Part shown: piece by piece, positions 45,998 through 52,724 of the stretch
Layout of the letters: each line of letters opens with the position of its first letter
Numbering within the stretch: the first letter of the stretch is position 1
NCBI GenBank assembly: GCA_964642835.1
Contig: CAZXQA010000001.1
Span: 268,831-323,386, forward strand
Origin: an uncultured Candidatus Saccharibacteria bacterium
GTDB lineage: Bacteria; Patescibacteriota; Minisyncoccia; Phycocordibacterales; Zambryskibacteraceae
Direction: 5' to 3'
DNA: 54,556 nt
Program-made: the position numbers and the translations under genes
The notes under the pieces: model-generated
Databases searched by the model: none
Told to the model about the DNA's origin: nothing
The model's input: only the letters and a program-made list of their open reading frames with translations

Positions 45998-47008
45998 TTA
46001 AACAAGGAACTCAATCACATCCCCATCTTGGACGACATACTCCTTCCCTTCCGTTCTCACCCAGCCCTTAGACTTCGCGGCGGCGTAGGAGCCGGCTTCG
46101 AGGAGCTTGTCGCAGGCAATCACTTCCGCGCGGATGAAACGAGCTTCGAAGTCGGTGTGGATTGAGCGGCCGGCATACGGCGCCTTGGCATCACGCTTCG
46201 TCGTCCAGGCACGTGTCTCGGCTTCGCCTGTCGTCAGGAAGGTGATGAGGTCGAGAAGTTTGTAGCTCTCCGTAATTAAATTATCCAAGCCCTCGCCGAA
46301 GACCGGATCGAGCTTCACATACGGTCCGGGGATCTTCGAAGCAATCTCGTCCGCCAAGTTCTCTGCCGCGGCAGAGGTGTTCAATATATAGAGCATCGGC
46401 TTCATGGTAAGGAGGTGAAGGTTGCCGACGAGTTTCTTCTCTTCCTCGGTGAGCACTGCTTCGTTCGCGAGCTTCCCTTCCTTGAGCAGAGCTTCCACTT
46501 TCTGAAGAGCGGCTTCTTCGGCGGCCGCTTCCTTCTTGCCGGTCTTCGCTTCACGAGCGACACCGCCCAAGCGCTTAGAGACCGTTTCCATATCGGCAAG
46601 AATAAGTTCGAGGTTAATGACCGCGATGTCTGAGAGTGGGTCTACCGTGCCAGCCACGTGGATGACGTCATCGTCGCGGAAGGTGCGAACCATGTGCGCG
46701 ATGGCATCTACTTCGCGGATGTTCTGGAGGAATTTATTGCCCAGACCTTCTCCCTCGGAAGCACCCTTCACGAGACCGGCAATGTCGACGAATTCGACCA
46801 CCGCGGGGACCGTCTTCTTCGACTGACTCATGGCGGAGAGTTTCTCCAAGCGCTCGTCAGGCACCGGGACGATACCGACGGAAGGATCGATCGTACAGAA
46901 GGGGTAATTCTCGGCCGGAACGCTCTTCTTGGTGAGCGTATTAAAGAGCGTGGACTTCCCCACGTTCGGCAGACCGACAATGCCGATACTTAGTGCAGAA
47001 TAAGACAT
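45998..47008 (-). CDS. ychF: redox-regulated/ribosome-binding ATPase YchF
   Basis: [19 protein letters not shown] is the G1 motif. The protein continues [14 protein letters not shown] and ends with a TGS-like C-terminus (DGDVIEF). Confidence 0.92.
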
Positions 47009-47054: not shown

Positions 47055-47297
47055 TTGATTACCTACGACCTTTTCAACAGTGTTCAATACTATCTCCCGT
47101 TTCTCACTAAAACTCAAGTTCGAAAGTGGGACACCCTCAAGGTCTTACTGATGGTGCTGTGGGAAACAAAGGGTATTGATAATAAAAAATATGTTGCCTT
47201 ATCTGTGCCAATGGAAGAAGTTGGAAAAATGCTTGGAGGATGGAACGGGCAGGTCGCTTCAAAACAAAACTCTCTGCCCTTGAGCAGAGAGAAATGA
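47055..47297 (+). CDS. Avd-like four-helix-bundle protein, apparently N-terminally short (80 aa)
   Basis: The C-terminal TKGIDNKKYVALSVPMEEVGKMLGGW matches, from memory, the conserved ...IDNKKY...EIGKMLGGW end of DGR accessory (Avd)/four-helix-bundle proteins. An in-frame TAA at 47046 prevents upstream extension. Confidence 0.5.
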   Translation: MITYDLFNSVQYYLPFLTKTQVRKWDTLKVLLMVLWETKGIDNKKYVALSVPMEEVGKMLGGWNGQVASKQNSLPLSREK

Positions 47298-47303
47298 AGA
47301 GAG

Positions 47304-47437
47304 TTGCGAAGCGAGGAACACGAAACCGTTCTCACGATTCCACCTGTTGTCAGCGTTGCCGTTGTAGGCGTTCAGCCAGCGACCATTGTCGTTGCGATTG
47401 ATGCCGAGAACGTTCGGGTTGCCGTCCGAATCGGTTT
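47304..47437 (-). repeat. DGR template repeat (TR), sense on minus strand
   Basis: It aligns gap-free to 47785-47918. All 22 core mismatches are T on the + strand here, which is A on the - strand. In the VR frame it reads 11 Asn codons (8 AAC, 3 AAT). Confidence 0.85.
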
Positions 47438-47692
47438 GTATAAAGCACCTTCAGTGCCATTGCCCACAAGAGAGCCTCCGCGCTCAATCCACAGGTTGTA
47501 TCGAATTCCGCATCGTAATGCGATAGTGCTCTATACCAAGTATCTTCATTTTTTTGAAGTGTCTGCATACACCACCCTACCCTTGTCCTTAGACAAGGAT
47601 AATCTCGATGCATGGATACTGGGGTCGGTAGCGGGGAACCTTAATCCCCCACATATTCACCTACTGCCATTGCAGATTATATCAAAACGAAA

Positions 47693-47723
47693 GGCCCGGA
47701 CACCCATTTTTGGATGCCGGGCC
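47693..47723 (-). terminator. intrinsic terminator of the DGR target gene
   Basis: On the minus strand, the ggcccggcatcc-aaaaat-gggtgtccgggcc hairpin is followed by tttcgtttt. Confidence 0.65.
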
Positions 47724-47778
47724 CGAAGGGCAAAGGTCAAAGGATCTGAAGAAGATCCAAGTGACCAAGTCCTAAGTA

Positions 47779-48453
47779 CTAGTCTTGCGGGACGAGGAAC
47801 ACGAAACCGAGCTCACGACCCCACCTGTCGTCAGCGAAGCCGCTGCAGGCGCTCAGCCAGCGACCACGGCCGTCGCGATCGATGCCGAGAACGTCCGGGC
47901 CGCCGCCCGAACCGGTGATGGGCTCGTGCATGACGATGAGCCACCACAAACCCATCGCTTCGAGATCGTCGTCGGAGACCATCTCCCGGAGGAGCGGTGC
48001 GACTTCGACCGGAGGCGTCAGGTATCCGCGCTTCTTGGCTTCCTCGCGGATCTTCGAGGTGAGGCGATCGTTGTCTTCGAACTCGTCGCCCTTGATCACG
48101 ACCAGCTTGTACGTCTTGCCGTTGGTGGAGACGAACTTGTCGCTCCGGAGCAACTGCTTGGCGTAGTCGCCGACGTTGTAGTTGGCGGTCGTGAGCGATT
48201 CGATGAACTGCTCGCCGGTGCGGCCGTCCGTGGTCACGTGCCGAACGATCATGTTGCTGATCATCTCGACGCGCTTGCGGAAGACCGAGTAGAGCTCCGG
48301 CCAGATGTCGTTGTTGCCGAGCACCTGCTGGACTGCGTCCGTCGGAAGCTCCGCGCGGAAGCGCTTGAGAATCGAACGGAACAGCTCTCCGGCCTTGTCG
48401 ATCTGGCCGTCGGTCATCTGCGTATCCACGGATGGGGTCACGGTCTTTGCCAT
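47779..48453 (-). CDS. DGR variable (target) protein, 224 aa, VR at extreme C-terminus
   Basis: AAAGGAGG lies 8 nt upstream of the ATG. The gene is GC-rich. The last ~45 codons are the VR. No signal peptide or TM segment is visible. Confidence 0.85.
   Translation of the reverse strand: MAKTVTPSVDTQMTDGQIDKAGELFRSILKRFRAELPTDAVQQVLGNNDIWPELYSVFRKRVEMISNMIVRHVTTDGRTGEQFIESLTTANYNVGDYAKQLLRSDKFVSTNGKTYKLVVIKGDEFEDNDRLTSKIREEAKKRGYLTPPVEVAPLLREMVSDDDLEAMGLWWLIVMHEPITGSGGGPDVLGIDRDGRGRWLSACSGFADDRWGRELGFVFLVPQD
47785..47918 (-). repeat. DGR variable repeat (VR)
   Basis: It is the counterpart of TR at an offset of 481 nt. Substitutions occur only opposite TR adenines, except for 3 nt at the 3' end (47790-47792, IMH-like). 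Confidence 0.85.
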
Positions 48454-48493: not shown

Positions 48494-48545
48494 GTAGTCA
48501 TAGCCAGAAAGTACCGAGAGTTCGGAGCCTTTTGGCTATGACTAC
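48494..48545 (-). promoter_or_regulatory. 12-bp perfect-stem hairpin in the predicted 5' UTR of the DGR target gene
   Basis: gtagtcatagcc (48494-48505) pairs with ggctatgactac (48534-48545) around a 28-nt loop. The loop contains a smaller ccga/tcgg stem. Confidence 0.5.
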
Positions 48546-48578: not shown

Positions 48579-48607
48579 AGCATAGCACCTTTGGCGTGTT
48601 TTGTCAA
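48579..48607 (-). promoter_or_regulatory. sigma-70-like promoter for the DGR target gene (TTGACA-17-TATGCT on minus strand)
   Basis: The reverse complement of 48602-48607 is TTGACA and that of 48579-48584 is TATGCT, with a 17-nt spacer. Confidence 0.55.
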
Positions 48608-49021
48608 GTTCATGAATTTCCAAAAAATTTTATAGGATATGGGGAAATTAAATTTCCTTTTGAAATCTGGGGGTATGGGGGTGGGTATCTGAAAATTAGA
48701 TCTTTATGGCTTACTTATACTAACGTCCCGTATAAAGGATACCGGGGGTGAGTTCGGGGGGGGTGTATGCCCCTTACCCCTGAAAACTATAGTGTGCGCC
48801 CCTGTGGGGTAAATAGGAGCTATCTGATAGGCACTACCCAGCGAGGAGGAGGGAGTTTGATAGTGAATGAGAACGGAATGACCTTAGGGCTATGTTCTTT
48901 TGTGTTCAGGCCATGCCAACAGACAATTTGGACATGGGGTTAGAATAGCGGAAAATTGCAATAAGGTACATGTGTGGTACATTTTCGGCAGAATTTGTAC
49001 CTACAACCAAGGGGGGTTAAC

Positions 49022-50296
49022 ATGTCTGACGCGTACCAGGAACTCAAGGACCGCGGCTTCATCAGGCAAGAAACGGCACCGGTGGATGTGCGCCATCTGG
49101 GCACTCACGAGCTCATCGAAACGCTTTCAGCGGAGAAAAGGCTCAAGAGCGGCCAGACGACGTTCTACGTCGGCTTCGATCCGACCTCGGACAGCCTTCA
49201 CGTCGGAAGCCTCATGCCCATCATGGCCATGATGCATCTCCAGCGCGCTGGACACATTCCGATCTGCATCATCGGCGGGGGCACGGCTCTCATCGGAGAT
49301 CCGAGCGGCAAGACGCAGATGCGGCAGATGCTCTCGGAAGAAGATATCGCTTCGAACGGCCGGGGCATCCTGGCACAGCTCGAGCAGTATCTCTCTTTCG
49401 AAAACGGCTCAGGCGTCTTCGTCAATAACGCCGAGTGGCTCACGAAGCTCAATTACATCGAGTTTCTGCGCGACATCGGCAAACACTTCCGCGTCAACGA
49501 AATGTTGCGCATGGAAGCATACAAGGCGCGGCTCGAACGCAATGAGGGACTTTCCTTCATCGAGTTCAACTACCAGCTCCTGCAGGCCTACGACTTTCTC
49601 GTCCTTTTCGAGAAGTACGGCTGCACGATCCAGATGGGCGGCGACGACCAGTGGGGCAATATCCTCGCCGGCATCGATCTCATCCGGAAAGTAAGGCAGA
49701 GTGCATCGCACGGCCTCACCTTTCCTCTTCTCACTACGGCCAGCGGCCAGAAGATGGGTAAGACCGAGACGGGCGCCGTCTGGCTCGATGCAGCGAAGAC
49801 CTCGCCGTACGAGTACTATCAGTTCTGGATCAACACGGACGACCGGGATGTGGAGAGATTCCTCAAATTCTTCACCTTCCTGCCGCTCGGAAACATTGCT
49901 GATCTCTGCGCTGAAGGAGGCAGCCTCTTGCGCCATGCGAAAGAGGTCCTCGCCTTCGAAGCCACGCAGATCACGCACGGTTACGACGCAGCCGTAGAAG
50001 CACGGGAATCTTCCGAACGCCTCTTCGCCTCCGGCGGAAGCGGTGCGGCGAATGTCCCCTCGCTCTCGCTCACCAAAAGCGAAGCGGATCTTCTGAAACT
50101 CACCGAGATCCTCGTGCGGACCGGCCTCAGCTCGTCGAAGTCGGAAGCCACCAAGCTCATCAAGAGCGGCGGCGTCTCCGTCGACAACGTAAAGGTCACG
50201 GACGAGAAAGTTTTCCTCTCAGAATTTCTGAAAGAGAAATCTTCGCTCCTCCTGAGGAAAGGCAAGAAAACCTACCACAGAGTCGATGTGGAATGA
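49022..50296 (+). CDS. tyrS: tyrosine--tRNA ligase
   Basis: The ATG at 49022 follows AAGGGGGG. GFDPTSDSLHVGSL is the HIGH-type motif and KMGKTE is the KMSKS-type motif. A C-terminal S4-like domain is present. The ORF track's GTG at 48974 is less likely. Confidence 0.93.
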   Translation: MSDAYQELKDRGFIRQETAPVDVRHLGTHELIETLSAEKRLKSGQTTFYVGFDPTSDSLHVGSLMPIMAMMHLQRAGHIPICIIGGGTALIGDPSGKTQMRQMLSEEDIASNGRGILAQLEQYLSFENGSGVFVNNAEWLTKLNYIEFLRDIGKHFRVNEMLRMEAYKARLERNEGLSFIEFNYQLLQAYDFLVLFEKYGCTIQMGGDDQWGNILAGIDLIRKVRQSASHGLTFPLLTTASGQKMGKTETGAVWLDAAKTSPYEYYQFWINTDDRDVERFLKFFTFLPLGNIADLCAEGGSLLRHAKEVLAFEATQITHGYDAAVEARESSERLFASGGSGAANVPSLSLTKSEADLLKLTEILVRTGLSSSKSEATKLIKSGGVSVDNVKVTDEKVFLSEFLKEKSSLLLRKGKKTYHRVDVE

Positions 50297-50309
50297 TGTG
50301 AAATCGTAC

Positions 50310-50339
50310 AAGTGCATGGCTCCAGCCATGCACTTTTTA
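50310..50339 (+). terminator. intrinsic terminator
   Basis: aagtgcatggct/agccatgcactt is followed by ttttaa. Confidence 0.8.
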
Positions 50340-50425
50340 ATACATTGACACTCGCCTGATAAAACATTACTCTTTCAGCAGAAAGTAACGCTCCAAGACA
50401 TTTTCACTGAGACGTAAGGAGGCCC

Positions 50426-50965
50426 ATGAAGACTCTTATGCTACTTGCCGGGTTGCCGGGGGTTGGCAAGTCAACCATCTCCCGCCATCTCCGAGAAAAA
50501 ATCAAAGACGCGCGCGTGATCGACATCGACGTCTTCAAAGCGATGATCGTCGACCCCACCCTTATTGGCGATCAAGTCGATCCGCCGGAAATCCGCTGGG
50601 CGTGCTACCAACTCGCCCTGAACACGGCCTTCGGACTCTTCGAATATGGACTGACCTCAACCGTAATCATGGACGAAGTCTTCCATCTCGCCTCTTTGCG
50701 ATGCAAGGTCGAGAAGCTCTGCGCCGAGCGCGGGGTCAACGTCCTCTGGGTTGAAGTGCGGTCTCCACACCACGTGGTAAAAGAGCGCCTTCAGCAACGA
50801 AAGGGGCACATCCTCTCCCCGGAAGAGGCTCTGAATATTCATCAGATGTTCAGAGAGATCTTCGAGAAATTTCCAGACGCTCACCCAGGCTATATCGCCG
50901 TCGAGAACGACGGCAGGGATGTCGGCACTCTCGTCGACGACATCATGGAGAAACGAGCGGTCTAG
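50426..50965 (+). CDS. P-loop kinase/AAA_33-type ATP-binding protein
   Basis: MLLAGLPGVGKSTIS is the Walker A motif. The small size is typical of zeta-toxin/gluconate-kinase-like NTP-binding proteins. Confidence 0.75.
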   Translation: MKTLMLLAGLPGVGKSTISRHLREKIKDARVIDIDVFKAMIVDPTLIGDQVDPPEIRWACYQLALNTAFGLFEYGLTSTVIMDEVFHLASLRCKVEKLCAERGVNVLWVEVRSPHHVVKERLQQRKGHILSPEEALNIHQMFREIFEKFPDAHPGYIAVENDGRDVGTLVDDIMEKRAV

Positions 50966-50985
50966 AAATAGCGAAACAAGCCTCA

Positions 50986-51024
50986 AGACTGGTTCCGGCG
51001 CAAGCCGAAACCAGTCTGTTTTTA
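50986..51024 (+). terminator. intrinsic terminator
   Basis: agactggtt...aaccagtct, with an inner cggc/gccg stem, is followed by gttttta. Confidence 0.75.
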
Positions 51025-51036
51025 TAAGCAAAACCA

Positions 51037-51843
51037 TTGTGTTATAGTGGCGGCACAAATATGATGAAGCAAAGGGTCATCAACCAGAGCCTCCTCCAGG
51101 CGGCGGCGGCCGCCGGAAAAATTCTGCGCTCCGCTTTTGAGAAAGGTGTGACCCAAGAAATGAGTAAGGGTGCAGGCGGATCCTACTACGACGTCGTCTC
51201 CAAAGCCGACCTCCAGGCCGAGAAAGCGATTCTCAAAATCCTCAAGAAGAACCTCCCCGGTATTAATATATTAAGCGAAGAAACCGGCCTCACAGACCGT
51301 GGTTCGATGGACACTATCATCGTCGATCCGCTCGACGGCACGAGCAACTTCCTCCTCGGCATTCCCCACTTCTCCGTCGCCCTTGCGCACGTCAGGAACG
51401 GCGAAGTCATCGCCTCCGCAGTCTACAATCCTGTCCTGAAGAAAATGTACTTTGCAGAAAAGAGTAAAGGAACCTTTATCAACAAGAAGAAGCAGAAGCG
51501 TTCTCCCAACATCTCCCTCTCTTACGTCGCCATTAACTTCAGCCACCAGGATACGTGGCCGAAGAAAGGCACTAAGTTTAACTCCCTCTACAAACAAGGC
51601 ACCAAGCGCGTGCTCAACAACTGGTCTCCCAACCTCGACTTCTGCCTCCTCGCTGAGGGCAAGATTGATGCCGTTATCTCAAGCGGGAGTCTTATCTTCG
51701 ACTTTGCCCCGGGCCTTCTCATTGCCACAGAAGCCGGATACGGGCACTATCCTGAGAACGTACGTATTGGCAACACAATCGACGGCACCGCGAAGCTTGT
51801 CACCGGGCCGAAGGGTTCTTTCCTAAAAGCCTTACTCAAATAG
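51037..51843 (+). CDS. inositol monophosphatase family protein (SuhB-like)
   Basis: ILSEE...IVDPLDGTSNF is the metal-binding motif, with a C-terminal WD-type region. The true start is probably ATG 51061 or 51064. Confidence 0.85.
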   Translation: MCYSGGTNMMKQRVINQSLLQAAAAAGKILRSAFEKGVTQEMSKGAGGSYYDVVSKADLQAEKAILKILKKNLPGINILSEETGLTDRGSMDTIIVDPLDGTSNFLLGIPHFSVALAHVRNGEVIASAVYNPVLKKMYFAEKSKGTFINKKKQKRSPNISLSYVAINFSHQDTWPKKGTKFNSLYKQGTKRVLNNWSPNLDFCLLAEGKIDAVISSGSLIFDFAPGLLIATEAGYGHYPENVRIGNTIDGTAKLVTGPKGSFLKALLK

Positions 51844-51845
51844 TT

Positions 51846-52724
51846 ATGAAAAACATATTAGCGGGCGACAAGAAGAAGGAATACGCATCCCTCTTCGGTC
51901 TCTTGTATTGCTCGATCATCCTCGGCACACACTACATCGTGACGAAGCAGGTCTCCGCCTCCGTTGATGCACCCACTCTCACCGCCTATCGTTTCCTTAT
52001 CGCCGCACTTCCTTTGTTCGGATATTTGATCTATAAGAAGAAAGATCCTTTCGCAAACTTTAAGCCCGGAGCAATCCTGGGCTTTTTTCTATGGCTCGTC
52101 TTCATCATGATCAGCCTCGGTCTCGAGTACACGTCGGCGACAAACACGGGGTTCATCAGCGGCATCTTCTTCGTCTTCGTACCTTTCGTCGATTATCTGA
52201 TATTCAAAAAGAGACTCCAGCTATTCAACCTGCCGATCATTACCCTCTCTCTCGGCGGACTCTATCTGCTGACAGGCGGTCTCACCCACTTAAGCATGGG
52301 TGACATCCTCATCTTTCTTTCCGCGATCTGTACTGCGGTACACCTCTTGCTTGTCGGGTATTATTCGAAACAAGAACTTGATCCTGTCCTCGCCTGCTTC
52401 CAGCAATTCATCATGGTGTTTCTTCTCAGTATTCTCTTCGCCTTTGCCAGAGGAGGATTCCACCCGCTTATCCCCCCGGCGCAAATTGCTCCGCTTCTCT
52501 TCCTCGGACTTCTGGCTACCTTCTCGGTCTTCTTCGTCCAAATGCTTTCTTTGAAACGCGCTTCGGGCACGCACGGCGCCGTACTCTTATCGCTCCAGCC
52601 GGGCTTCGCGGCTTTCTTCGCTTACTGGCTCGGAGGAGAGAAGTTTTCCGGCCTCCAACTTACGGGCGGCTTACTCCTCTTCGTCTCTGCAATTATCTAC
52701 TCCATCTTCGCGAAGAAAAACTAA
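51846..52724 (+). CDS. EamA/DMT family transporter
   Basis: Ten predicted TM helices are arranged in two EamA-like halves. Confidence 0.8.
   Translation: MKNILAGDKKKEYASLFGLLYCSIILGTHYIVTKQVSASVDAPTLTAYRFLIAALPLFGYLIYKKKDPFANFKPGAILGFFLWLVFIMISLGLEYTSATNTGFISGIFFVFVPFVDYLIFKKRLQLFNLPIITLSLGGLYLLTGGLTHLSMGDILIFLSAICTAVHLLLVGYYSKQELDPVLACFQQFIMVFLLSILFAFARGGFHPLIPPAQIAPLLFLGLLATFSVFFVQMLSLKRASGTHGAVLLSLQPGFAAFFAYWLGGEKFSGLQLTGGLLLFVSAIIYSIFAKKN

Follow-up and report, generated by a model that had tools for sequence, protein, structure and literature searches.

The locus described here lies in a 54.5-kb stretch of DNA, the whole of which is called the window, and consists of the gene for a variable protein (the DGR target), a template repeat (TR), a remnant of the gene for Avd (accessory variability determinant), and several putative transcript signals (Table 1). 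The target gene is flanked by pyruvate kinase and ychF genes, in relatives as well as in the window, and its ATG is preceded at a distance of 8 nt by the Shine-Dalgarno sequence GGAGG. A promoter-like site is located ~125 nt upstream of the ATG, at the point where DNA homology to the related locus L084 starts. A terminator-like hairpin followed by a T-run may close the target transcript, and comparable hairpins and T-runs are also found in the family. Scans of the window against Rfam (gathering thresholds) and for tRNAs returned nothing.

Table 1. Positions of the features of the locus within the window
Feature	Position	Strand	Remarks
DGR target (variable protein) gene	47779..48453	-	224-aa ORF; homologues at 90-40% identity
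Variable region (VR)	47785..47916	-	Codons 180-223 of target; repeats TR
Template repeat (TR)	47304..47435	-	Direct repeat of VR, 132 nt
Avd remnant	47124..47297	+	Last ~59 of ~135 codons only
Conserved hairpin CTCTCTGC-TCAAGG-GCAGAGAG and U-tract TTTTGTTTT	47260..47291	-	13 nt after TR; terminator-like site
Hairpin GGATCT-TCTTC-AGATCC	47742..47758	-	Begins 21 nt past target stop codon; from sequence
Terminator-like GC-rich hairpin and T-run	47684..47724	-	Sequence inspection; not listed by consensus scan
Promoter-like site TTGACA, 17-nt spacer, TG-TATGCT	48579..48607	-	10/12 matches; consensus match only

A preliminary description of the locus had presented the target as a 224-residue protein whose N-terminal ~175 residues match no recognized family. 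Consistent with that description, the protein had zero matches to the families of Pfam, NCBIfam, PHROG, and PADLOC, no PDB sequence matched it, and a PDB profile search came back empty. Residues 1 to 67 form a helical N terminus that varies between lineages, and residues 68 to 224 form a conserved alpha/beta core. Comparison with close relatives gave dN/dS values of 0.22 to 0.32 for codons 1 to 179 and of 1.9 to 8.6 for the VR.

Variable region, template repeat, and target family

All 20 mismatches between TR and VR in a 124-nt core fall on adenines of the TR, such that 20 of the 31 core adenines are changed (A to G, 15; A to T, 3; A to C, 2), an outcome with a chance probability of P ~9e-13. 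Differences at other bases number three and are confined to the last 8 nt. The TR contains 33 adenines, 14 at codon position 1, 18 at position 2, and 1 at position 3, and holds 11 AAY codons. Nineteen codons, at residues 181 to 215, are diversifiable (11 of them AAY), which corresponds to ~4e17 variants, and no substitution at any of the 19 can produce a stop codon. The 3′ end of the VR (GGTTTCGTGTTCCTCGTCCCGCAA) is IMH-like, GC rich, and 24 nt long, with A only in its final CAA. Homology to the TR stops at codon 223 and is followed by one codon and then TAG, in agreement with the C-terminal VR and nearby stop codon reported in the preliminary description. The same description had called the VR very short, but at 132 nt, or 44 codons, it is close to the 134 nt of BPP-1 VR1 and TR, and the VRs of Mtd and TvpA are 45 residues long (PMC5006420). 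The estimate of ~15 diversifiable residues holds as the number that differ between the TR- and VR-encoded peptides, which is 15, but not as the number of diversifiable codons.

Related loci carry the same signature. In L084, L085, L002/L003/L004, and the window, all or nearly all differences of the VRs from the TRs fall at A sites. Moreover, four TR substitutions specific to the window are also present in the window VR, which indicates that homing took place after the split from L084. We conclude that the last 44 codons of the target have been rewritten from the adjoining TR by adenine-specific mutagenesis and that the same gene in related strains bears different VRs that differ only, or almost only, at template adenines.

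The target family is very large, is found only in Patescibacteria, and has no Pfam model; it comprises 3,331 clusters at 50% identity. A homologue search gave 181 matches (E values of 1e-129 to 1e-38 among the 120 matches listed), and relatives occur at at least 228 places in a species-genome collection. Motifs conserved in the ~155-residue core include YAKQ, FEDNDR, MHEPI, GRWL, RWxR, and GFxF. Several related loci come from the groundwater data sets GW2011 and RIFCSP, as used in surveys of CPR DGRs. Whether homologues bear VRs, a check suggested in the preliminary description, was answered by 49 of 85 family loci, in which an adjacent TR with A-specific mismatches lies ~350 nt after the target stop codon. 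The cassette order in the family is target, TR, Avd on the opposite strand, and RT, and this arrangement is complete at 30 of the 65 informative loci, with 27 loci having the target only and 7 being decayed. We conclude that the target is a genuine DGR target gene and that, rather than being unusual as originally thought, it is typical of a huge family of Patescibacteria proteins that are systematically DGR targets.

Avd remnant, missing RT, and state of the VR

The target, TR, and Avd remnant of the window keep the order, spacing, and orientation of the family cassette, with the RT position deleted, and the layout is matched exactly by two of the decayed loci, L006 and L044. The open frame around the Avd remnant extends from 47055 to 47297, and homology to the avd genes of relatives begins at 47124, which is also the breakpoint of DNA homology. 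The remnant matched Pfam bAvd (6.5e-05), NCBIfam DivGenRetAVD (1.8e-06), the PHROG family "Avd protein of DGR" (8.8e-07), and an HMM of the family Avd (7.6e-27), and its tblastn alignment spans residues 60 to 135 of 135. Within the 54.5-kb window, no RT was found either as a YxDD context or as a tblastn match, an HMM of 33 RTs from the family gave a best E value of 1.2 against the six-frame translation, and there was no second Avd. The preliminary description had missed that the window lacks an RT and retains only the last third of Avd. One candidate for an RT relic, a 67-aa frame at 47144-46944 on the minus strand, lay at the place expected for RT and aligned to RT motif 4 (GLPLGNLTSQ...) at 36% identity. 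The candidate was rejected, as its GVPL part is the antisense of avd-homologous DNA (47124-47138), its identity to the RT of the closest relative (L118) was no higher, and DNA similarity is absent to the left of 47124. By sequence comparison, the deletion begins at avd codon ~76 and ends a short way upstream of ychF. Having lost its own RT, the locus is no longer able to diversify unaided, and given that the window holds no RT and that Avd is reduced to its last ~59 codons, we conclude that the locus is a non-autonomous remnant.

Other loci of the family differ in what they retain. L084 has a TR and an Avd of at least 117 aa, and L118 has an RT and an Avd. At L002/L003/L004 the target directly adjoins ychF, there is no TR, and one identical VR is found in three samples. 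L087 has a transposase-like ORF in place of the RT.

The hairpin 3′ of the TR overlaps the C-terminal codons of Avd on the opposite strand. Across 32 family sequences, 94.5% of cells in the hairpin were paired, versus 35 to 68% in slid controls; six of the eight pairs showed double-sided changes, and the observed covariation score was reached by 0 of 500 shuffles. Hairpin and U-tract are both kept in four RT-less cassettes, that of the window and those of L006, L044, and L054. We conclude, from the alignment, that they are a family-wide element of the putative TR transcript. The TR 3′ end (47303-47314) and the DNA after the hairpin (47254-47265) are complementary over 12 nt, but this complementarity is absent in L084 and is possibly due to chance. 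Most family loci carry an equivalent (GGGAC-TTCA-GTCCC) of the hairpin after the target stop codon at an identical offset, even where the target has no TR of its own. The position of the hairpin matches that of the inverted repeat downstream of the IMH in other DGRs, and by analogy with BPP-1 it may serve the same role (PMC3240598, PMC5758913). If a complete cassette of the family works as BPP-1 does, transcription of the TR would end at the hairpin and U-tract that follow it, an RT-Avd complex would copy the TR RNA into cDNA with random bases opposite A, and the cDNA would replace the VR up to its A-free IMH-like end, aided by the post-stop hairpin.

For a cassette truncated by deletion, there are two possible states of the VR, frozen or still subject to rewriting in trans. 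We regard as possible, though short of probable, that the TR-VR module is still active and that an RT-Avd encoded elsewhere in the genome uses the orphan TR and its hairpin to rewrite the VR. The TR is intact with all its AAY codons, has no non-A difference from the VR in 124 nt, and differs from the L084 TR at 7 of 132 nt, while the dS of adjacent coding DNA is 0.18; against this, neither an RT nor a second Avd is present within the window. Retention of the TR 3′ hairpin and U-tract in the four RT-less cassettes would fit use in trans, as would the remote, TR-less paralogue L041, whose VR shows 20 A and 3 non-A differences from the TR of L016, a cassette at a distance of 15 kb, but in the known cases of remote targets the shared TR is that of a complete cassette, and a TR apart from its RT is no documented working arrangement. 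Similarly, most of the 27 target-only loci still have the post-VR hairpin, yet the RT has been lost independently in three related lineages (the window, L002/L003/L004, and L087), and the identity of the L002/L003/L004 VR across three samples indicates that it is frozen there. We conclude that a frozen VR, as in the sister strains without a TR, is slightly more likely than rewriting by an RT-Avd encoded elsewhere. We note that the intact TR, its 3′ hairpin, the post-VR hairpin, and the lack of non-A differences in the core fit ongoing use in trans and recent deletion alike.

Predicted fold, location, and base composition of the target

A Foldseek search with the full-length AF2 model gave no useful result, and the core was then predicted alone (pLDDT 95, pTM 0.89). 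DSSP assigned to the core model E4-9, H13-22, H29-36, and E44-54, then an insert of H65-74, H84-91, and H94-99, and then E104-113, E119-125, E132-137, and E148-153. The predicted order is therefore beta-alpha-alpha-beta-(three-helix insert)-beta-beta-beta-beta, and the IMH-like end of the VR supplies the codons of the last strand, NGFVFL. The CLec core has the order beta1-alpha1-alpha2-beta2-beta3-beta4-beta4′-beta5 with inserts, the VR at its end, and beta5 from the invariant IMH (PMC5006420), and it is in element order and in the origin of the last strand that the predicted core matches it. Foldseek with the core model found no significant neighbor (best E value, 0.87; TM, <0.5). The only recurrent matches, all weak, were C-type lectin domains (mannose receptor CRD4, DEC205, and MCL), which made up 15 of the 50 PDB matches listed; their TM scores normalized to target length were 0.12 to 0.45, with mannose receptor CRD4 at 0.40 to 0.45 over ~130 columns. 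No solved DGR variable protein was among the listed matches, and a search against viral predicted structures found nothing.

The preliminary description had held that the VR does not look CLec-like. At the level of sequence the statement stands, as none of the 113 members matched a known CLec VR family; FGE-sulfatase, DUF1566, and Lectin_C matches in Pfam were absent even at E values up to 10, an hhalign comparison with BPP-1 Mtd, a single sequence and hence of low power, gave a probability of 0.2%, and a clear match to a known CLec-type family was looked for and not found. The claim that the fold is not CLec is nevertheless unproven and, judging from the model, probably wrong, because the predicted element order is that of CLec and C-type lectin domains are the only recurrent, if weak, structural matches. 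We conclude that the ~155-residue core most likely has a divergent C-type-lectin-like fold and that a ligand-binding face is most likely formed by the 19 variable residues, which the model places on the three final strands and associated loops.

No signal-peptide-like or TM-like segment was detected by a Kyte-Doolittle heuristic in the target or in 112 homologues, and the maximum 19-residue hydropathy of the target was 0.75, where a TM helix needs ~1.6. The earlier statement that the protein lacks a signal peptide, lipobox, or TM segment was thereby upheld for the family, and no secretion signal emerged. Moreover, the target has a single cysteine and is acidic (D+E, 35; K+R, 29). CPR DGR targets typically lack TM segments and conserved domains (Roux 2021, PMC8144416). 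We conclude that the target is a small soluble protein that, by hydropathy heuristics, is predicted to be cytoplasmic. One alternative is that the target is exported or displayed without a classical signal peptide and, like other DGR targets, serves as a variable adhesin directed at the episymbiont's host cell. The function of most characterized DGR targets is binding between cells or between virus and cell (PMC8144416), and AvpA-like targets of nanosized archaea have been proposed to serve symbiosis (PMC5006420), but Roux 2021 (PMC8144416) leaves it possible that CPR targets are truly not membrane bound. Nonclassical export would be invisible to hydropathy heuristics; nonetheless, the absence of signal-peptide-like and TM-like segments from all 113 members, the acidic single-cysteine composition, and the lack of a recurring secretion-related gene in the few neighborhoods inspected make an adhesin somewhat unlikely.

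At 62.5%, the GC content of the target is the highest of the 45 ORFs in the window (mean, 53.6%; standard deviation, 3.9; z = 2.3), its GC3 is 0.87, and the noncoding flanks have 45 to 46% GC. The preliminary description had recorded the high GC content correctly and had taken it to suggest foreign origin. Recent acquisition of the gene or of the whole cassette would account for a GC-rich ORF between AT-rich flanks but is, in our estimation, very improbable, as the target core exceeds its surroundings in GC in 76 of 77 loci, at any genome GC (28 to 61%), and the pyruvate kinase and ychF neighbors are shared with relatives. Moreover, the excess is specific to the target: in 33 full cassettes the GC offset was +12 points for the non-VR part of the target, -3 for Avd, and -4 for RT. 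Foreign origin is unsupported because the high GC is family-wide and restricted to the target, with RT and Avd not being GC rich. The excess sits in codon position 3, is symmetric for A and T, and forms a GC3 plateau across the 160 conserved codons. Depletion of adenine throughout the target by the RT was ruled out as the cause, since A3 and T3 are equally reduced, and a GC3 gradient falling away from the VR, as for repair-linked biased gene conversion, was not seen over the plateau. Lastly, that the repeat is an ordinary duplication or chance similarity and not a DGR pair, a reading to which the absence of a nearby RT might lend itself, has a negligible probability given that all core mismatches are on adenines (P ~1e-12), the TR has an AAY codon design, the Avd remnant has the place and orientation typical of the family, and homologous loci show the same TR/VR pattern (49 loci) and an RT with Avd (30 loci).

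Relation to known DGRs and significance

To our knowledge, prokaryotes have no system of targeted protein hypervariation other than DGRs, and no lineage is richer in DGRs than CPR bacteria. The locus shares with the CPR DGRs of clade 2 (Roux 2021, PMC8144416) and with the CPR set of Wu 2018 (PMC5758913) the host group, small non-TM targets without recognizable domains, and a C-terminal VR, and in both, as in the target family, the RT is cellular and not phage borne. The VR classes UVR1 to UVR6 given for CPR in Wu 2018 (PMC5758913) are of unknown fold. The window locus differs from the CPR DGRs of the two studies in that its RT and the greater part of its Avd are gone. Neither Roux 2021 nor Wu 2018 is the source for the GC3 island, the TR 3′ hairpin, or the recurrent decay, all of which were observed here.

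Likeness to the mtd-avd-TR-brt system of BPP-1 extends to adenine-specific transfer from TR to VR, a VR at the extreme C terminus, AAY codons, VR and TR length (132 nt here versus 134 nt), an A-free IMH-like end, and a hairpin after the VR. Mtd, however, is the tip of a phage tail fiber with an FGE-type CLec fold, to which the target has no profile similarity. Moreover, the family has avd between TR and RT and encoded on the opposite strand, a conserved hairpin and U-tract directly follow the TR, and the RT is missing at the window locus. The nanoarchaeal AvpA (PMC5006420) is likewise a small single-domain target in a nanosized organism, with a fold not predictable from sequence; its CLec core is broken by helical inserts and takes its last strand from the invariant IMH, features that are predicted for the target. 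The nearest structural neighbors of AvpA are mammalian C-type lectins and not Mtd or TvpA (PMC5006420), and the target's own matches of this kind are weak. AvpA differs in having an internal VR of 27 residues, where the target has a terminal one of 44, and no sequence relationship is detectable. Intracellular DGR targets of cyanobacteria and multicellular bacteria (PMC7517822, PMC10907252) provide a precedent for targets that are not secreted, but those are large multidomain signaling or conflict proteins with a recognizable CLec/FGE domain at the C terminus, whereas the window target is a stand-alone protein of 224 aa with no recognizable domain.

We are fairly confident that the gene encodes the variable protein of a DGR type confined to Patescibacteria (CPR), that the locus is an RT-less non-autonomous remnant, and that the core is most likely C-type-lectin-like and divergent. 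The finding is real but ordinary for the phylum, and the local element is defective. A more speculative proposal, which we think rather doubtful, is that the target is an intracellular variable sensor and not an adhesin and that the GC3 island and the TR hairpin with its U-tract are undescribed mechanistic requirements of this DGR lineage, for example, a minimal TR RNA usable in trans. If so, such an RNA would account for the TR and hairpin having outlasted the loss of the RT.

The commonest kind of CPR target is nameless and has no structure and no known compartment, a question that Roux 2021 (PMC8144416) calls open. The locus is a clean representative of that kind, with a high-confidence model and a defined, predicted variable face of 19 residues. 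The conserved RNA hairpin beside the TR is a candidate element of cDNA priming or termination. Moreover, strains in which the cassette around the same gene is intact, partly deleted, or fully deleted form a natural series, which could show what becomes of a variable protein once diversification stops.

Template repeat, variable region, and conserved hairpins

To characterize the diversity-generating retroelement (DGR), the template repeat (TR) was compared with the variable region (VR) of the target. Over a 124-nt core, all 20 mismatches fell at TR adenines (20 of 31 adenines changed; 15 A>G, 3 A>T, and 2 A>C), for which the probability by chance is ~9e-13, and the three non-A differences were all clustered within the last 8 nt of the repeat. 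TR adenines occupied codon positions 1, 2, and 3 in 14, 18, and 1 cases, respectively, 11 AAY codons were present, and no stop codon was reachable by adenine substitution in the TR. The preliminary description of the gene as a DGR target was thus borne out, and we conclude that the two repeats are a textbook DGR template/variable pair. Two further details of that description require revision. The VR was called very short, but its 132 nt (44 codons) compare with 134 nt for VR1 and the TR of BPP-1 and with 45 residues for the VRs of Mtd and TvpA (PMC5006420). The ~15 residues thought to be diversifiable are those that actually differ between the TR- and VR-encoded peptides, whereas 19 codons (residues 181-215) are diversifiable, giving ~4e17 variants.

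Features of the target locus and retroelement remnant
Feature	Coordinates	Strand	Description
Target ORF	47779-48453	(-)	224 aa
VR	47785-47916	(-)	Last 44 codons of target ORF
Post-VR hairpin	47742-47758	(-)	Starts 21 nt past target stop codon
TR	47304-47435	(-)	132-nt direct repeat shared with VR
TR 3' hairpin, then invariant GTTTTGTTT	47291-47270, T-run to ~47260	(-)	13 nt after TR
Avd remnant	47055-47297	(+)	Open frame; C-terminal part only

The hairpin that follows the TR, together with GTTTTGTTT, recurred at this position in 44 further loci. Pairing was maintained in 94.5% of cells compared with 35-68% in slid controls (32 distinct sequences), six of eight pairs showed compensatory changes, and the observed covariation was reached by 0 of 500 shuffles. 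The hairpin overlaps the C-terminal codons of Avd (accessory variability determinant) on the opposite strand, so the covariation is not due to coding. The hairpin was also kept in cassettes that lack reverse transcriptase (RT), namely, those of the window and of loci L006, L044, and L054, and the hairpin and U-tract may serve the TR RNA as a terminator or for priming. The TR 3' end (47303-47314), which bears three window-specific substitutions, is also complementary (10/12) to 47254-47265, just past the hairpin and U-tract; the pairing was not present in the relative L084 and may be due to chance. The hairpin past the VR reads GGGAC-TTCA-GTCCC in most relatives and is followed next by a terminator. 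An inverted repeat that promotes homing sits at the equivalent place in BPP-1 (PMC3240598, PMC5758913), and by analogy, the post-VR hairpin would have the same role. Separately, a strong promoter-like site (TTGACA, 17 nt, TG-TATGCT) lies upstream of the target at 48579-48607(-), and between it and the Shine-Dalgarno sequence, the presumed 5' leader contains an inverted repeat (48494-48545; 24-nt arms, 83% complementary, 4-nt loop) that may be regulatory.

The target family and its predicted fold

The target matched no Pfam, NCBIfam, PHROG, or PADLOC model, a PDB sequence search that included the family profile gave no match, and none of 113 family members matched any Pfam family at E values up to 10, in agreement with the earlier failure to recognize a family. 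Nonetheless, the target is not unusual, contrary to what had been claimed. Word-indexed homologues numbered 181, each either without a name or labeled "hypothetical," and came from Parcubacteria, Paceibacterota, Wolfebacteria, Giovannonibacteria, and comparable groups; relatives occurred at at least 228 places in the species-genome collection; and 3,331 clusters at 50% identity were related to the target at E values up to 1e-3 (806 at up to 1e-30). The tyrosyl-tRNA synthetase (TyrRS) of the window itself had Paceibacterota and Patescibacteria proteins as its closest matches, at ~70% identity, which places the host among the CPR bacteria. Family members are 165-260 aa long and conserved over the last ~155 residues (motifs YAKQ, FEDNDR, MHEPI, GRWL, RWxR, and GFxF), while the first ~65 residues differ from lineage to lineage. 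Two proteins of 329 and 374 aa (P0121 and P0128) carry the core domain in two tandem copies. Whether homologues also bear a VR was answered by 49 of 85 loci, in which an adjacent TR differed from the VR almost exclusively at adenines. Wu et al. 2018 (PMC5758913) list six VR classes of the CPR, UVR1-6, to which no fold is assigned and four of which have no match at all. We conclude that the target is typical of its very large family and is a genuine DGR variable protein of a CPR-specific kind, a class already catalogued and uncharacterized.

The target is acidic, contains one cysteine, and has a hydrophilic N terminus, and its highest 19-residue hydropathy anywhere was 0.75. By the same hydropathy heuristic, no signal-peptide-like or transmembrane-like stretch was found in the 113 members, which supports the earlier suggestion that the protein has no classical export signal. 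CPR targets as a rule have neither transmembrane nor conserved domains, and whether they are genuinely non-membrane-bound "remains to be established" (Roux et al. 2021, PMC8144416).

AlphaFold2 modeled the full-length protein with a pLDDT of 79, with low confidence in the N-terminal 67 residues and above 90 in the core, and the core alone with a pLDDT of 95 and a pTM of 0.89. Foldseek returned no significant neighbor among PDB and viral predicted structures (best E value, 0.87). C-type lectin (CLec) domains (mannose receptor CRD4, DEC205, and MCL) made up 15 of the 50 PDB matches listed, none significant; the nonsignificant CRD4 matches had TM scores of 0.40-0.45 (target-length normalized) over ~130 columns, and the full-length model also drew CD23. 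The core is predicted to comprise beta, alpha, alpha, beta, a three-helix insert, and four strands, the same element order as the CLec core of DGR proteins (beta1-alpha1-alpha2-beta2-beta3-beta4-beta4'-beta5 with inserts; PMC5006420). Moreover, the last strand derives from the invariant 3' end in Mtd, TvpA, and AvpA (PMC5006420) and likewise in the target (NGFVFL). Two invariant tryptophans within the VR, W199 and W211, recall the nonvariable aromatic residue that sits at the bottom of binding sites already described and offer a lead. The AvpA fold was likewise unpredictable from sequence, and its best structural match was mammalian CLEC5A (PMC5006420); for that reason, we think it reasonably probable that the modeled core adopts a divergent CLec-like fold. 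The earlier impression that the protein departs from the usual CLec type agrees with the Pfam searches but not with the predicted element order.

GC content of the target core

The target has the highest GC content of the 45 ORFs in the window (62.5% versus a mean of 53.6%, standard deviation of 3.9), with a GC3 of 0.87. The GC richness reported in the preliminary description was confirmed, but the foreign origin drawn from it was not: in 76 of 77 loci, from genomes of 28 to 61% GC, the target core was richer in GC than the sequence around it, with a mean difference of 13 points. In 33 complete cassettes, the offset was +12 points for the non-VR part of the target and +21 for the VR, versus -3 for Avd and -4 for RT. 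Family-wide, GC3 was ~0.69 in the target core versus 0.40 in the RT and Avd that accompany it, and the excess formed a plateau across the conserved last 160 codons, with background levels upstream. Foreign origin of the locus does not account for this family-wide, target-specific pattern. Adenine mutagenesis also does not explain the pattern, as the excess resides at codon position 3 with A and T depleted equally. We conclude that the conserved target core is a GC3 island and that the island is a trait of the family rather than of the locality.

Intact and decayed cassettes

The closed Giovannonibacteria genome CP066687 carries the target(+), TR(+), bAvd(-), and an RVT_1 reverse transcriptase(+). 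The fetched loci keep that order and spacing: the TR lies ~350 nt past the target stop codon, avd is on the opposite strand and ends ~10 nt past the TR, and RT is divergent from avd. Downstream sequence was long enough to judge in 65 loci, of which 30 had complete cassettes, 27 had the target only, and 7 had decayed cassettes (RT fragments in 3), including two with the TR and an Avd fragment without RT (L006 and L044) and two with the TR only (L040 and L054). In Falkowbacteria LCGL01000001.1, three paralogous targets (L016, L041, and L063) accompany a single cassette. The VR of the TR-less L041 differed from the TR of the L016 cassette, 15 kb away, at 20 A and 3 non-A positions, and the other TR-less copy was more diverged (13 A and 11 non-A). 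The fit of the L041 VR to the L016 TR makes it plausible that remote targets in the family are diversified in trans.

In the window, no YxDD context was found in any frame, tblastn with a family RT gave no match, and a model built from 33 family RTs gave none in six-frame translation (best E value, 1.2). The Avd remnant was detected by the family Avd model (7.6e-27) and labeled "Avd protein of DGR" or DivGenRetAVD by curated libraries; its DNA homology to the avd of relatives starts at 47124, and 115 nt of unrelated sequence separate that point from ychF. We conclude that the window retroelement is decayed, with the TR, the TR hairpin, and one third of avd left. We note that the 1.9-kb segment containing the target, TR, and Avd remnant sits within the 5' end of ychF. 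The original ychF 5' end is detached and now lies at 48913-48949(-), at a distance of 460 nt on the upstream side of the target; it consists of 14 upstream nt plus the initial 23 nt of the gene, which specify MSKLSVG, also found in L002 and L004. The remainder of ychF picks up past the Avd remnant from a new start (46987-47008(-)), and T[CT]GGCAT is present at both junctions. Pyruvate kinase lies ~100-630 nt upstream of the target in L002 and L084; in the window, four genes that run opposite to the target (48974-52724(+); TyrRS, an AAA-type kinase, an inositol monophosphatase-like protein, and an EamA transporter) intervene, a local rearrangement. The 54.5-kb window contained no tRNA genes and no Rfam families at the gathering threshold.

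Close relatives record the history of the cassette. In L084 (84% nucleotide identity), pyruvate kinase and the target are followed by a TR (25 TR/VR differences, all at A) and by Avd, of which at least 117 aa are present up to the end of the contig, and the Avd of L118, 90% identical to that of L084, adjoins a full RT. L087 (Ga0209542_10073358; Avd 91% identical), from the same sample as L118, retains Avd intact, with a DDE/rve-like transposase ORF after it in place of RT. In L002, L003, and L004, ychF directly follows the target without a TR, and one identical VR is common to all three across three samples. As the states of the window, L087, and L002/L003/L004 differ, RT was lost within the clade on at least three occasions, each time in a different way. 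We conclude that RT loss is recurrent and in part IS associated. The VRs of the window and its close relatives differed from one another essentially only at TR-adenine sites, and dN/dS was 1.9-8.6 in the VR versus 0.22-0.32 elsewhere in the gene, a pattern indicating that the target gene is under purifying selection and was actively diversified in this population. Four substitutions that separate the window TR from the L084 TR are copied in the window VR, and thus, the last homing was later than the split from L084.

The GC3 island, the TR hairpin, and the natural series from intact to deleted cassettes are of interest as side observations. The interest of the system is moderate and lies not in the window copy but in the family, which is large and has no structural assignment.
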